A DNA stretch of 64,000 nucleotides from positions 66,199 through 130,198 of the forward strand of contig JBGVNW010000041.1 in assembly GCA_045125935.1 (NCBI GenBank), written 5' to 3'. Below the pieces are notes generated by a model, which worked only from the letters and a program-made list of their open reading frames with translations, was not told where the DNA came from and searched no databases. The position numbers were made by a program, and so were the translations under genes. Each line of letters begins with the position of its first letter. The stretch's first letter is position 1. Shown piece by piece: positions 17,837 to 20,595 of this stretch. The DNA comes from Bacilli bacterium. Lineage in GTDB: Bacteria; Bacillota_I; Bacilli_A; RF39; UBA660.

Positions 17837-18946
17837 ATGAATACTGAAAAATTAAATAATTTGGCCAAAACAATAGTAAATTATTCGCTTCATTTAAAAG
17901 AAAATAGTAAAGTATTAGTTAGCTTTACTCCTGAAGCATCTCCACTAGTAGAAGAGTTAGTAAAAGAAGCTCAAGCAGTAAAAGCTATTATGATTTTAGA
18001 CATGTATAGTCCTAAATTAAATAGTTTATTAGCAGAAAAAAATACTGATGAAAGAATTGACTTAATTAAAGAAATAAGAGAGTTTGAAGTTGCTAATTAC
18101 GATGCATTTATTTCAATAAGATATACATATAATGATTATGAAACTAAGAATGTTCCTAAAGAGATGCGTATTAAATTAGGTTTAGCAACACAAGCAGCTG
18201 ATGACATTAGAATCAATCAAAGAGACTGGGTACTATTGAATTATCCATCTCCACAAGATGCTTTTAAAGCTAAAATGACCACAACAGAATTTAATGAATT
18301 TGCTTTAGATGTAATGACTGTTGATTATGCTAAAATGTCTGCAGATATCAAGCCTCTAAAGGATTTGATGGAGAAAACAGATAAAGTAAGAATCATCTCC
18401 CCTGGTACAGACTTAACTTTCTCAATTAAAGGACTACCAGCAGTACCTTGTACCGGAGATAAAAATATTCCTGATGGAGAACTTTACTCTGCCCCAGTAA
18501 AGGATAGTGTAAATGGAACTATTACTTATAATACTCCATGTCCATATAATGGAAATGTTTTCCACCATGTTTCATTGACTTTTGAAAATGGTAAGATAAT
18601 AAAGGCAACATGTGATGAAGATGATGATAAATTAAATGAAATATTTGATACAGATGAAGGTGCTAGATATGTTGGAGAGTTTTCTTTAGGATTCAATCCT
18701 AAAATTTTATATCCAATGGGCGATATCTTATATGATGAGAAAATTTTAGGAAGTCTACATTTTACACCAGGAAGATGTTATGCAGATTGTGACAATGGTA
18801 ATAGATCAAGTATTCACTGGGACATGGTTCTAATCCAAAGAGAAGACTTTGGTGGAGGAGAAATCTATTTTGATGATGTCCTAATTCGTAAAGATGGTAA
18901 ATTCGTTATAGATGAATTAAAAGTATTAAACTACGAACAAAAATAA
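17837..18946 (+). CDS. M29-family aminopeptidase (PepS/AmpS-like)
   Basis: 369 aa. NLAKTIVNYSL.., GDKNIPDGELYSAP, YVGEFSLGFNP and SIHWDMV blocks typical of thermophilic-metalloprotease M29 aminopeptidases. Confidence 0.8.
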   Translation: MNTEKLNNLAKTIVNYSLHLKENSKVLVSFTPEASPLVEELVKEAQAVKAIMILDMYSPKLNSLLAEKNTDERIDLIKEIREFEVANYDAFISIRYTYNDYETKNVPKEMRIKLGLATQAADDIRINQRDWVLLNYPSPQDAFKAKMTTTEFNEFALDVMTVDYAKMSADIKPLKDLMEKTDKVRIISPGTDLTFSIKGLPAVPCTGDKNIPDGELYSAPVKDSVNGTITYNTPCPYNGNVFHHVSLTFENGKIIKATCDEDDDKLNEIFDTDEGARYVGEFSLGFNPKILYPMGDILYDEKILGSLHFTPGRCYADCDNGNRSSIHWDMVLIQREDFGGGEIYFDDVLIRKDGKFVIDELKVLNYEQK

Positions 18947-18974
18947 GTCTAACAATGTTAGACTTTTTCTTTTG
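18947..18974 (+). terminator. intrinsic terminator of the aminopeptidase gene
   Basis: GTCTAAC-AAT-GTTAGAC followed by TTTTT. Confidence 0.8.
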
Positions 18975-19015
18975 AAATTAAAGATATATTATAAAAAAAT
19001 TGTATTATATATATA

Positions 19016-19260
19016 GGAACATTTAATAGTTAGGTGGAACCAAACTTCAAGAGAAGGGAGGTGATTATATGAATAAAAAAGATACTCTTATCTTTTTTCA
19101 AATAATAATTATCTACCTTTTAATATTATTACTATTTATAGTCTTAATATAAAAGAAAAGCCTAACTAAAATTTCTTTTAGTTAGGTAACCAATCATGGC
19201 AACACCTAACCAAGAAATATTAAGTGTTCCTATTTTATTTTATGAAGTTTCCTTCATCTA
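19016..19260 (+). repeat. type-I-toxin-like module, copy 1 of a 322-bp tandem duplication
   Basis: Near-identical to 19338-19582 over the 5' UTR and ORF, and more diverged in the 3' UTR loops. Confidence 0.9.
19069..19152 (+). CDS. 27-aa hydrophobic peptide (candidate type I toxin)
   Basis: MNKKDTLIFFQIIIIYLLILLLFIVLI*. SD GGGAGGTG lies 7 nt upstream. Confidence 0.5.
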   Translation: MNKKDTLIFFQIIIIYLLILLLFIVLI

Positions 19261-19265
19261 AGTAC

Positions 19266-19294
19266 ATAGTATCATAACTTTTTAATAATATCAA
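19266..19294 (-). promoter_or_regulatory. candidate antisense (antitoxin sRNA) promoter, copy 1
   Basis: Minus strand reads TTGATA-17 nt-TACTAT. The transcript would run antisense across the toxin 3' UTR into the hairpin at about 19158-19186, which is followed by CTTTTCTTTT on the minus strand. Confidence 0.4.
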
Positions 19295-19337
19295 TTATAT
19301 TAAGGGAAAAACATAAATTATGCGTATCATATATATG

Positions 19338-19582
19338 GGAACATTTAATAGTTAGGTGGAACCAAACTTCAAGAGAAGGGAGGTGATTATATGAATAAAA
19401 AAGATACACTTATCTTTTTTCAAATAATAATTATCTACCTTTTAATATTATTACTATTCATAGTCTTAATATAAAAGAAAAGCCTAACTAAAATTTTATT
19501 CTAGTTAGGCAACCACCAAAGGTAACACCTAACAGGAAAAAATTAAGTGTTCCTATTTTTATTTTATGCAAGTTTCCTTGAC
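19338..19582 (+). repeat. type-I-toxin-like module, copy 2
   Basis: Second unit of the 322-bp duplication. Confidence 0.9.
19391..19474 (+). CDS. 27-aa hydrophobic peptide (candidate type I toxin), identical peptide
   Basis: Same 27-aa product as 19069-19152, with two synonymous differences. Confidence 0.5.
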   Translation: MNKKDTLIFFQIIIIYLLILLLFIVLI

Positions 19583-19588
19583 AAATTC

Positions 19589-19617
19589 ATCATATCACAA
19601 CATAAATATCTTGTCAA
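19589..19617 (-). promoter_or_regulatory. candidate antisense (antitoxin sRNA) promoter, copy 2
   Basis: Minus strand reads TTGACA (19617-19612)-17 nt-TATGAT (19594-19589). Confidence 0.45.
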
Positions 19618-19646
19618 AATAAAATACCGTTATCGGAACAAAAATA

Positions 19647-19675
19647 TTGACTTTTAGTACCGTCTACGGTATAAT
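19647..19675 (+). promoter_or_regulatory. sigmaA-type promoter of the HTH-pseudoFic/kinase-array operon
   Basis: TTGACT (19647-19652)-17 nt-TATAAT (19670-19675). SD GAGGTGG and ATG 19696 follow. Confidence 0.7.
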
Positions 19676-19695: not shown

Positions 19696-20595
19696 ATGGA
19701 CTTTATGACTACAAAAGAGGCTACAGAAAAGTGGAAAATAAGTGAAAGACGTATTAGAAAATTATTAAAAGACGGAAGAATTATCGGAGCAATTAAAGTT
19801 GGAAATAGTTGGAGCATCCCAACAAATGCCACTAAGCCTATTGATAAACGTAGTATCAAATATGAAGATAAAAAAATAATTATAAATCTTAGTCAAATAT
19901 TTTTTGCTAAAGTAGATAATTTAAAAGACCAAATTAAGAAAAACGCAAAATATGCTGATGAACAATTTCTAATTGAGTGGATTTACAATGATAGCAAATT
20001 AGAAAGAAATACATTAACAAAAGATGAAATAAAAATAGTCATAAATAATATTACCGTAGGTGGAAAATCAATAGAAGAGCACCTTGAAATAATTAATTAT
20101 AAAAATGCTATTAAATACTTAATTAATTCTGTTGATAAAAACATTAAAATAACTGAAAATGAGATAAAAACCATTCATCACATAGTAAGTCAAAATATTG
20201 ATAATGAAAATACAAATACATATAGAACAGAACAAGAAAATAACGATATAGATCCTACATTAATTCCAGAAATAATGTTAAAGTTAATTTCTAATTATAA
20301 TGAGAAAACATCACATGTCATAATAAAAGCTGTTATCTTACATAGTGAATTAATTAAGCTCTCACCATTTAAGGATAATAACTTAAAGACCGCTTTACTT
20401 TTAATGAACTTAATTTTTATGAATAATGGCTACCAACCAATAATTATAAAAGAAGAGTATAAATCAAATTATTTATCACAACTAAAAAATTCTCAAATAA
20501 CAGGCGATTATACTAAGTTGATAAAATTAATTTTAAAAATAGAAGAACAGTGCTTAGAAGATGAGATAAACAAAATGGAGGTTGGTGATAAATAA
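19696..20595 (+). CDS. HTH (excisionase/MerR-like) + Fic-fold protein with degenerate active-site motif
   Basis: N-terminal MTTKEATEKWKISERRIRKLLKDGRIIGAIKVGNSWSIP. Fic-core landmarks SKLERNTLTKDEI, EEHLEIINYKNA, IKTIHHIV and ILHSELIKL. The motif position reads SPFKDNNLKTAL (20362-20397) where HxFx(D/E)GNGRxxR is expected. Confidence 0.75.
   Translation: MDFMTTKEATEKWKISERRIRKLLKDGRIIGAIKVGNSWSIPTNATKPIDKRSIKYEDKKIIINLSQIFFAKVDNLKDQIKKNAKYADEQFLIEWIYNDSKLERNTLTKDEIKIVINNITVGGKSIEEHLEIINYKNAIKYLINSVDKNIKITENEIKTIHHIVSQNIDNENTNTYRTEQENNDIDPTLIPEIMLKLISNYNEKTSHVIIKAVILHSELIKLSPFKDNNLKTALLLMNLIFMNNGYQPIIIKEEYKSNYLSQLKNSQITGDYTKLIKLILKIEEQCLEDEINKMEVGDK

Follow-up and report, generated by a model that had tools for sequence, protein, structure and literature searches.

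Two direct repeats, each encoding the same 27-residue hydrophobic peptide, lie between an aminopeptidase gene and a Fic/kinase-array operon in the window (the whole stretch of DNA analysed, 64,000 nucleotides), and the question is what they are: part of the regulation of that operon, a pair of small membrane protein genes, a mobile repeat, or the toxin-antitoxin (TA) modules that the first-pass annotation proposed. We put the probability at roughly two in three (0.68) that each unit of about 320 bp forms a complete type I toxin-antitoxin-like cassette in itself, belonging to a family not described before. Transcription of the cassette is predicted from its sequence; toxicity, antitoxin action and RNase III dependence are predicted only by analogy with known systems.

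Two repeat units at one insertion site

The units abut one another (18977-19298 and 19299-19620) and have a common layout: an identical 27-aa open reading frame (ORF), a helix that closes the peptide mRNA 5' end to 3' end, a hairpin directly after the ORF and an inward-facing promoter on the minus strand. Their features, from the left border of the pair onward, are as follows.

18945-18965, plus strand: terminator that ends the upstream aminopeptidase gene and marks the left border of the insertion (terminator prediction, empty-site comparison)
19003-19008, plus strand: copy 1, predicted -10 box (TATTAT) of the peptide mRNA, read from sequence; -35 box poor
19016-19243, plus strand: copy 1, predicted peptide (toxin) mRNA, about 228 nt (fold, covariation, strand stability)
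19016-19027, plus strand: copy 1, mRNA 5' arm, pairs with the 3' arm
19029-19036, plus strand: copy 1, element A (GTTAGGTG), pairs with element C
19056-19063, plus strand: copy 1, Shine-Dalgarno (SD) sequence GGGAGGTG, paired with 19103-19112 within the ORF (mean unpaired probability 0.14)
19069-19152, plus strand: copy 1, ORF of 27 aa, MNKKDTLIFFQIIIIYLLILLLFIVLI (translation, family-wide conservation)
19161-19186, no strand assigned: copy 1, post-ORF hairpin (elements B and B'), SL3 of the antisense RNA; terminator on the minus strand only, U-tract 19160-19151
19203-19210, plus strand: copy 1, element C (CACCTAAC), pairs with element A
19219-19230, plus strand: copy 1, mRNA 3' arm (ATTAAGTGTTCC), pairs with the 5' arm
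19231-19243, plus strand: copy 1, mRNA U-tract, directly 3' of the 3' arm
19152-19259, minus strand: copy 1, predicted antisense RNA, about 106 nt (fold -31.7 kcal/mol, z -5.0)
19257-19242, minus strand: copy 1, antisense 5' hairpin with GAAA loop (predicted fold)
19266-19294, minus strand: copy 1, antisense promoter TTGATA-17-TACTAT with TG extension
19325-19330, plus strand: copy 2, predicted -10 box (TATCAT) of the peptide mRNA, read from sequence; -35 box poor
19338-19567, plus strand: copy 2, predicted peptide mRNA (RNAfold)
19338-19349 and 19351-19358, plus strand: copy 2, 5' arm and element A (fold)
19391-19474, plus strand: copy 2, ORF for the same peptide
19482-19510, no strand assigned: copy 2, post-ORF hairpin and minus-strand terminator (terminator prediction)
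19526-19533, 19542-19553 and 19554-19567, plus strand: copy 2, element C, 3' arm and U-tract (fold)
19474-19582, minus strand: copy 2, predicted antisense RNA, about 108 nt (fold -32.4 kcal/mol, z -4.3)
19580-19569, minus strand: copy 2, antisense 5' hairpin CAAG-GAAA-CUUG (predicted fold)
19589-19617, minus strand: copy 2, antisense promoter TTGACA-17-TATGAT with TG extension (11 of 12 consensus matches)

That two direct repeats carry one peptide, as annotated, is confirmed by alignment: 18977-19174 matches 19299-19496 at 92% identity and 19168-19241 matches 19491-19564 at 78%, with an offset of 322/323 nt and identical translations. The description of the pair as a tandem duplication holds for the direct repeat itself but not for a simple recent copying event, because the final 55 nt or so of the units (antisense 5' hairpin and promoter) belong to two different subtypes of the family (GAAG/CUUC versus CAAG/CUUG). 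The two ORFs differ by two substitutions, both synonymous, and differences between the copies are almost confined to the loops and linkers of the 3' untranslated region (UTR), which suggests that each mRNA may be recognized partly separately, by its own antisense RNA.

The pair was also correctly placed directly upstream of the kinase-array operon, between the aminopeptidase terminator and the operon promoter. At this spot the cassette is absent from two otherwise syntenic relatives of the same genus: in one (G001) the aminopeptidase terminator is followed directly by the kinase-array promoter, and in the other (G009) by a spacer of about 330 nt and then the kinase-array region. Compared with these genomes of the same genus, the window has gained the cassette pair by insertion, and the region 5' of the Fic/kinase operon proves to be an inserted selfish module and not a regulatory part of that operon.

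The peptide gene and its two predicted RNAs

The peptide has a head with basic and acidic residues (M-N/S-K-K-D) followed by a single hydrophobic helix of 22 residues, and the family consensus is M[NS]KKDFLI.SL.I.I.LL.LLLF.VL[IK], with several subtypes ending in K or KK. An intact ORF of 18-37 aa (nearly all 24-35 aa) is present in 114 of 123 distinct units (93%). Where codons differ by a single base, 0.56 of the differences are synonymous, although only 0.24 would be expected; the other two frames give 0.27 and 0.08, and the entropies at the three codon positions across family ORFs are 0.755, 0.310 and 0.921; by these codon statistics the ORF is under purifying selection. Each unit thus holds what a type I system calls for on the toxin side, a gene for a small (<60 aa) hydrophobic peptide conserved as coding sequence. 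Scans of four family peptides against Pfam and NCBIfam gave nothing meaningful and no known toxin family, seven of eight peptides looked up exactly in a collection of 15 billion proteins were absent from it, and a literature search with the peptide strings returned no papers; peptides of this kind are invisible to annotation.

On the plus strand, the promoters of both copies have usable -10 and poor -35 boxes, and in 106 of 123 units of the family the initial G of GGAACA follows the end of the -10 box by 6-8 nt. The annotation had proposed that the 5' end of the mRNA pairs over a long range with its 3' segment, and folding calculations favor this helix in both copies: RNAfold gives a minimum free energy (MFE) of -63.7 kcal/mol (z -7.2) for 19017-19245 and of -62.3 kcal/mol (z -7.9) for 19339-19568, in neither case equalled by any shuffle, and in both MFE folds the 5' end GGAACAUUUAAUAGUUAGGUG is paired with CACCUAAC...AUUAAGUGUUCC. 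The first 22 nt or so of the mRNA pair with about the last 35 (12 + 8 bp, plus 3-5 more pairs), so that both ends are predicted to be buried. The helix is present in the MFE fold of 94% of 127 units. It also covaries, with 97.4% of cells paired (36-45% in slid controls) and compensatory changes in 16 of its 20 pairs, compared with 4.2 ± 1.5 in a shuffled helix and reached in 0 of 500 shuffles, figures that come from mutually related sequences and, where a model-fitted alignment was used, from one biased towards the structure of the model. Among units sampled by their 3' UTR only and with intact ORF, the 3' end almost always finds its best partner some 50-56 nt 5' of the start codon, just downstream of the -10 box; and for 13 subtypes the cognate 5'/3' duplexes average -28.2 kcal/mol, compared with -15.3 for non-cognate ones.

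RNAalifold, run on plain MAFFT alignments, joins the 5' element to the post-ORF hairpin's first arm and not to the 3' element, and finds only six pairs in the 3' UTR. Because all four 8-mers involved covary, covariation alone cannot separate this pairing from A:C together with B:B'; we dropped it and retained A:C and B:B', because the latter form the single-sequence MFE fold in 94% of units and are continuous with the outer helix.

The minus strand has its own predicted gene. Inward-facing promoters had been annotated in both copies, and their boxes are confirmed, with a TG extension and at a position fixed in 117 of 126 units (TG-extended -10 in 91%, 17-nt spacer in 85%). The post-ORF hairpin had been read as a terminator for the antisense strand, which terminator prediction bears out: terminator-like sites at 19186-19161 and 19510-19482 are found on the minus strand only (four such sites found, 0.1 expected), and across the family 95.6% of the cells of this hairpin (helix 1) are paired, with 9 of 11 pairs compensatory. 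The antisense RNA of about 100 nt expected over the toxin 3' UTR is accordingly predicted at about 105 nt, with a conserved promoter position. It would consist of a 5' hairpin capped by a GNRA loop, an A-rich single-stranded linker, a middle hairpin (SL2) and the terminator SL3 just past the stop codon; 16 of 20 of its pairs are compensatory, equalled in 0 of 500 shuffles.

Which strand each structure belongs to can be read from the asymmetry between G-U and A-C pairs. The closing helix is more stable on the plus strand (-23.4 versus -16.3 kcal/mol on the minus strand; plus better in 98% of units), which assigns it to plus-strand RNA, and for the SL2 region the reverse holds (-12.7 kcal/mol on the minus versus -4.8 on the plus strand; minus better in 98% of units), which assigns the antisense hairpins to minus-strand RNA. 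Because these signatures are opposite, both strands appear to make functional RNAs. The promoter, the terminator, the covariation and the G-U signature together predict a cis-encoded, overlapping antisense RNA gene, the other half of a type I system.

Control of translation looks different from what had been suggested. Both ORFs are preceded by GGGAGGTG, which the annotation supposed could be sequestered by CACCT in the 3' segment; we rejected this pairing, as it is absent from the predicted folds, in which the SD partner is the U/C-rich AUAAUUAUCU within the ORF body. The predicted SD opening energy is barely higher than with a shuffled ORF body (11.0 versus 10.5 kcal/mol, p = 0.04), so the predicted occlusion may be a by-product of composition, and the case for specific selection on it is weak. 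Masking the 3' UTR shifts the predicted opening energy by only +0.8 kcal/mol. Activation by trimming of the 3' end, as in hok, was likewise rejected, as predicted SD accessibility does not rise (opening energy 10.2 kcal/mol in the closed mRNA, 11.8 after trimming), and so was a second, par-like interaction site: no complementarity of the antisense RNA to the leader and translation start was found beyond shuffles (mean z -0.5, with z below -2 in only 8% of units).

Spread of the family and choice between explanations

In the family of uncultured gut Bacilli to which the window belongs, a covariance model of the 3' UTR (R1) detects the cassette in 165 of the 301 genomes and in 125 of the 214 genera, so that the repeats turn out to belong to a conserved cassette. 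Counts per genome reach 12 or more, tandem triplets occur, and the window's own genome has eight matches of four peptide subtypes. The 5'-arm pattern occurs in at least 120 stretches of gut metagenome-assembled genomes (MAGs). Class-wide and phylum-wide samples contained no cassette in other families, IMG/VR viral contigs gave no match to the 5'-arm pattern, and blastn found none in plasmid and phage collections; Rfam 15 (both strands, E <= 10) returned chance-level matches only, and topic searches of the literature found no description of this cassette family. Copies are often situated at contig ends. Their flanks are diverse (225 flanking ORFs in 152 clusters), the neighbors being unrelated housekeeping genes, and about one fifth of units lack the toxin half and keep the antisense half. 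Given the diverse flanks, the same-genus empty sites and the toxin-less units, the cassette behaves as a selfish element.

This distribution bears on the main alternative, which we consider unlikely: that the peptide is a non-toxic small membrane protein, tuned by its antisense RNA, that modulates a membrane enzyme, transporter or sensor. The lack of Pfam or NCBIfam homology to any known toxin, strong conservation under purifying selection, which any functional micro-protein should show, and the housekeeping neighbors would all suit such a protein. An accessory of this type should have one partner and one locus, however, and the multiple copies and tandem arrays, the presence in only about 55% of family genomes, the empty sites in close relatives, the very diverse flanks and the remnants that retain the antisense half fit an addictive or selfish module better.

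Convergent RNAs also control the pheromone and inhibitor precursors of enterococci (prgQ/Anti-Q), and the peptide could by the same token be the precursor of a secreted hydrophobic signal whose production the antisense RNA governs. A short basic head followed by hydrophobic residues to the C terminus, and the predicted convergent antisense RNA, are what one would look for, but we think this very improbable, as the hydrophobic run has the full 22 residues of a membrane span, the K/KK ends of several subtypes do not suit a C-terminal pheromone, the unrelated housekeeping flanks hold no receptor or regulator gene that goes with the cassette, and genomes hold many divergent copies. Least credible of all is a miniature inverted-repeat mobile element or structured DNA repeat with incidental ORF and promoters, which would account for inverted repeats (GGAACATTTAAT... 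and ...ATTAAGTGTTCC) flanking about 200 bp, for many copies in many contexts and often at contig ends, and for the empty site, but not for an ORF that is intact in 93% of units and has a coding signature, for conservation that reaches past the inverted repeats to positioned promoters on both sides, or for helices that tolerate G-U and not A-C on one strand, which only selection at the RNA level explains.

If the cassette is a toxin-antitoxin module, as we favor, its antisense RNA probably begins to pair at single-stranded sites, namely the A-rich linker with the mRNA U-tail and the complementary hairpin loops, and pairing would then zip along the 3' UTR and displace the mRNA 5' arm. RNase III, which is encoded in the window's own genome, would cut the resulting duplex and the unlocked ends would be open to exonucleases, so that toxin mRNA would stay low. 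Should antisense synthesis fall, the closed mRNA, being stable, would survive and support slow translation, and growth would stop as the peptide inserted into the membrane.

Being fully complementary to the mRNA 3' UTR, the predicted antisense RNA contains a copy of that mRNA's 5' arm; it has the same GGAACA...GUUrGGUG as the mRNA 5' end and would thus compete with the 5' arm for the 3' arm. Tentatively, and with the odds against it, we suggest that this mimicry is the mechanism: the antisense RNA would open the closed mRNA by strand displacement from a linker/U-tail toehold, decay from the unlocked ends would act in place of or besides a block of translation, and four copies of one 8-mer (GUUrGGUG, CACCUAAC, GUUAGGUG and CACCyAAC) would form a conformational switch. 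If true, such a switch would be common to at least several hundred cassettes in a genome-reduced gut lineage.

The cassettes would add a large family to the type I TA world (several hundred copies in the searched samples, probably many more across the lineage) in an uncultured small-genome lineage of Bacilli from the gut of humans, mice, rabbits, ruminants and chickens, a lineage in which no such system has been described. The cassettes vary between strains as insertions and probably interrupt assemblies, which makes them useful as markers and calls for caution in MAG analysis; and a closed mRNA with an antisense RNA mimicking its 5' end would be a compact, highly covarying RNA device that could be reused as an RNA switch.

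Comparison with known type I systems

The ShoB and Ibs-type toxins of Escherichia coli are very short peptides that are hydrophobic to the C terminus; the cassette peptide resembles them in shape only, and sequence, RNA architecture and host are unrelated. Closer in RNA architecture are hok/sok of plasmid R1 and aapA1/IsoA1 of Helicobacter pylori, in which pairing between the distant 5' and 3' ends locks the toxin mRNA in its full-length form (PMC5416894), as predicted here. In those Gram-negative systems, however, trimming at the 3' end makes the SD accessible and it is the 5' region that the antisense RNA binds, whereas the cassette folds have no SD opened by 3' processing and its antisense RNA is complementary to the 3' UTR only.

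The par locus of Enterococcus faecalis pAD1 (Fst/RNA II) and SprA1/SprA1as of Staphylococcus aureus have, like the cassette, convergent promoters, an ORF that the antisense RNA does not overlap and complementary hairpin loops that could form the first contact. The extreme 5' end of the Fst mRNA is taken up in an intramolecular helix (5'-UH) and its SD in a local stem (PMC7472228); the cassette mRNA has a predicted counterpart of both, with an SD opening energy of about 10-11 kcal/mol that is not clearly above the composition control. The PXXXG motif, conserved Trp and charged C-terminal tail of the Fst toxin family (PMC7472228) are absent from the cassette peptides, which have no Pfam match, and no second complementary site of DRa/DRb type over the SD and start codon was found. 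The cassette also differs in having no shared bidirectional terminator: its mRNA would read through the post-ORF hairpin and end about 70 nt later.

The 3'-overlapping layout of txpA/RatA and bsrG/SR4 type, proposed at the outset, is supported, every proposed architectural element being present and conserved or covarying. With txpA/RatA, bsrG/SR4 and bsrE/SR5 of Bacillus subtilis the cassette shares convergent genes, an antisense RNA whose complement is the 3' portion of the toxin mRNA (here from the stop codon to past the mRNA 3' end, as predicted), a small and here predicted membrane peptide, and a Firmicute host. Systems of this type reportedly depend on RNase III, and by analogy control through duplex formation and RNase III would be expected here too. 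The B. subtilis loci lie within prophage-like regions, whereas the cassette is found among housekeeping genes and is absent from phage collections. There is no sequence, Rfam or Pfam relationship: when the cassette was compared with Rfam 15, Pfam and NCBIfam, neither txpA/RatA nor bsrG/SR4 was matched by sequence or covariance model. The B. subtilis antisense RNAs also overlap the toxin ORF (PMC8594479), whereas that of the cassette is confined to the 3' UTR and reaches no further than the stop codon. Judged by its sequence features, the cassette is thus a layout analogue of txpA/RatA and bsrG/SR4; by sequence it belongs to neither of these families, nor to those of hok, AapA1 or Fst, and it is set apart from the B. 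subtilis systems by the long 5'-3' closing helix, which makes its predicted antisense RNA a mimic of the mRNA 5' end.

Two abutting cassettes and their predicted RNAs

A repeat search resolved the locus into two abutting units of about 322 bp (18977-19174 versus 19299-19496, 92% identity; 19168-19241 versus 19491-19564, 78%). As the first-pass annotation had proposed, these tandem units encode the same peptide, MNKKDTLIFFQIIIIYLLILLLFIVLI, at 19069-19152 and 19391-19474, each downstream of GGGAGGTG; two synonymous substitutions separate the two open reading frames (ORFs), and differences between the copies are almost confined to the 3' UTR loops and linkers. The inward-pointing minus-strand promoters that it had described were recovered by a consensus scan, both with a TG extension, and the minus-strand features are as follows.

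19294-19266, minus strand, promoter, copy 1
19617-19589, minus strand, promoter, copy 2
19186-19161, minus strand, terminator-like hairpin, copy 1 (consensus scan)
19510-19482, minus strand, terminator-like hairpin, copy 2 (consensus scan)
19259 to 19152, minus strand, predicted antisense RNA, copy 1 (three hairpins, fold z -5.0)
19582 to 19474, minus strand, predicted antisense RNA, copy 2 (three hairpins, fold z -4.3)

Single-sequence folds of both copies reproduce the suggested 5'-3' pairing of the mRNA, in which the first ~21 nt pair with CACCUAAC...AUUAAGUGUUCC directly before the U-tract, and the predicted mRNAs fold at -63.7 kcal/mol (z -7.2) and -62.3 kcal/mol (z -7.9), far below shuffles. 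One 8-mer is present four times per unit, in alternating sense.

Element A, GUUrGGUG, mRNA 5' end
Elements B and B', CACCUAAC and GUUAGGUG, together the post-ORF hairpin
Element C, CACCyAAC, 3' UTR

A second small ORF (window 19196-19261, plus strand, ...LNVPFLFYASFL...) lies in the 3' UTR and recurs at the same position in many relatives; it has no Shine-Dalgarno sequence (SD), its start position varies among units and it extends past the predicted mRNA end, and it is probably incidental to the conserved RNA sequence.

Evolution of the peptide and of the two predicted RNAs

An ORF of 18-37 codons (nearly all 24-35) is kept in 114 of 123 distinct units, with the consensus M-[NS]-K-K-D-F-L-I-x-S-L-x-I-x-I-x-L-L-x-L-L-L-F-x-V-L-[IK]. 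Of the single-base codon differences between 55 distinct ORFs of 27 codons, 56% are synonymous versus 24% expected (27% and 8% in the other two frames), and in the cassette ORFs conservation is by far strongest at the second codon position. The cassette peptide is a real coding sequence, and these peptides are missed by gene callers; an exact look-up found seven of eight sequences absent from a collection of 15 billion proteins and the eighth present, unnamed.

Of 127 units, 94% have the closing helix (5' arm and element A paired with element C and 3' arm) in their minimum-energy fold. The helix alignment (40 distinct 5'/3' pairs) has 97.4% of cells paired, falling to 36-45% when partners are slid by 1-3 columns, and compensatory changes occur in 16 of 20 pairs; shuffles average 4.2 +/- 1.5, and none of 500 reached the observed count. 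Across 13 subtypes the mean 5'/3' duplex energy is -28.2 kcal/mol for cognate and -15.3 for non-cognate ends, and elements A, B, B' and C change in concert across divergent subtypes. We also sampled 60 hits picked by 3' UTR alone: in those with an intact ORF the 3' end nearly always finds its best partner ~50-56 nt 5' of the start codon, directly downstream of a -10 box, a position that is the predicted first transcript nucleotide. The 3' UTR/antisense hairpins covary too (16 of 20 pairs compensatory; 0 of 500 shuffles as high).

The two strands differ in what they stabilize. The closing helix is worth -23.4 kcal/mol on the plus strand versus -16.3 on the minus (plus more stable in 98% of units), and SL2, the middle hairpin of the antisense RNA, -12.7 on the minus strand versus -4.8 on the plus (minus more stable in 98%); non-standard SL2 cells on the plus strand are frequently C-A, which is U-G on the minus strand. 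Only RNA-level selection on both strands explains this pattern, which argues against an inverted repeat acting as DNA. By this sequence evidence the cassette appears to specify two functional RNAs, one per strand. The antisense -10 carries a TG extension in 91% of units and a 17-nt spacer in 85%, its position being fixed in 117 of 126, and the mRNA -10 ends 6-8 nt 5' of GGAACA in 106 of 123.

Sequestration of the SD by CACCU, also suggested earlier, was not borne out: in the folds the SD pairs instead with ORF-internal sequence. Opening the SD-to-AUG stretch costs a predicted ~10-11 kcal/mol whether the mRNA is closed, masked by the antisense RNA or trimmed at its 3' end. These predictions thus give no activation of the hok or AapA1 kind on 3' trimming, and antisense binding adds at most +0.8 kcal/mol. 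Shuffling the ORF body leaves occlusion nearly equal (10.5 versus 11.0 kcal/mol with the real ORF), and it may simply follow from hydrophobic codons being U-rich. Antisense complementarity to the translation start does not exceed chance.

Distribution and genomic setting

A blastn comparison of one unit with 60 related genomes recovered full-length copies, 66-76% identical, from many genomes belonging to its genus and family. The 21-nt 5' arm, scanned against one genome per species, matched at least 120 stretches in gut MAGs of rabbit, goat, reindeer, chicken, mouse and Hadza people, labeled, among the matches listed, as uncultured Bacilli, Tenericutes or Mollicutes, Candidatus Onthousia, Candidatus Aphodocola and Firmicutes bacterium CAG:582. 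Covariance model R1, built on the 3' UTR/antisense part, hit 165 of 301 genomes in the window's family (125 of 214 genera), with up to 12 scored copies per genome and tandem triplets; in samples of 400 class and 400 phylum genomes all matches fell inside that family. Viral contigs scanned for the 5' arm, and phage records and plasmids compared by blastn, gave no match. Some cassette-bearing MAGs (loci L039 and L131; CAYRAF010000019.1 and CAYRAF010000040.1, versus G033:C19 and G033:C40) are publicly titled Muribaculaceae or Clostridium; these titles look like mis-assignments, the matching genomes being placed in the window's Bacilli family.

The window's own genome has eight matches, two of them in the window, with four peptide subtypes in all. 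The six others (loci L160-L165) bring three other subtypes (MKKKDLLISF...IKK, MTKREFSLF...LLK and MKKR[TI]FII...[IK]K), with matching 5'/3' arms particular to each.

C59:8336-8851, tandem pair, subtype MKKKDLLISF...IKK
C24:418-539, unit
C24:2113-2235, unit
C53:35088-35203, unit
C16:40090-40202, toxin-less remnant between tRNA-Leu and tRNA-Thr

Three-cassette arrays in two other genomes (G130:C3:184239-185063 and G497:C1:289137-290164; spacing 358-456 nt) indicate that tandem amplification is common in the family. Many copies are only a few hundred bases or less from a contig end.

Cassette neighbors are diverse (225 flanking ORFs in 152 clusters, 110 of them singletons) and by eye resemble housekeeping genes (LepA, an ABC exporter and ScpB among them). 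In two genomes of the genus, G001 and G009, histidine kinase, aminopeptidase and kinase array follow one another in the same order as in the window, and both the cassettes and the Fic gene are missing; the array promoter follows the aminopeptidase terminator by ~12 nt in G001, and the spacer is ~330 nt in G009. By these empty sites the ~650-bp pair in the window is an insertion between terminator (18945-18965) and promoter (19647-19675). The Fic gene, with homologs beside cassettes in three other genomes of the genus and absent along with the cassettes from the syntenic site in G001 and G009, may be a variable insertion in its own right. In those three genus genomes (L009 in G014, L016 in G005, L013 in G011) the HTH/dead-Fic homologs (43-64% identity to window 19696-20595 over aligned parts) adjoin the cassette convergently, with no kinase array. 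About one-fifth of the 3'-UTR-selected hits lack ORF and 5' arm; at least two such toxin-less antisense remnants adjoin tRNA genes (L190, G164:C9, tRNA-Arg; L161, tRNA-Leu and tRNA-Thr).

Proposed mechanism and relation to known systems

In our structural model the stable mRNA pairs A with C and B with B', with A:B pairing a possible alternative form. The antisense RNA, as complement of the 3' UTR, bears a copy of the mRNA 5' arm and may mimic the mRNA 5' end; in predicted folds its single-stranded A-rich linker faces the mRNA U-tail and its loops face the mRNA loops. It would pair along the 3' UTR and oust the 5' arm, exposing the mRNA ends and forming a long duplex that could be a substrate for RNase III, which the genome encodes. 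When antisense RNA is scarce, the closed, stable mRNA would be translated into a membrane-active peptide.

The first-pass reading, a type I toxin-antitoxin-like system, is essentially right. Sequence analysis shows the parts, their conservation, the covariation and the strand assignment; transcription, toxicity, decay route and trigger we infer. The cassettes are a well-supported new family within this already known class, a reading to which we give a probability of roughly two in three. Our literature searches found no description of the family, and comparison with known type I families on sequence, motifs and second interaction site placed it in none of them. The architecture is familiar; the family is large and unannotated, its covariation is unusually abundant, and it is restricted to one uncultured lineage of the gut. 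It shares the 3'-overlap layout of txpA/RatA and bsrG/SR4, but its predicted antisense RNA, unlike theirs, halts at the stop codon, as also in Fst/RNA II and SprA1 (PMC8594479), and its 5'-3' lock appears functionally similar to those of hok and AapA1 and to the upstream helix of par RNA I (PMC7472228).
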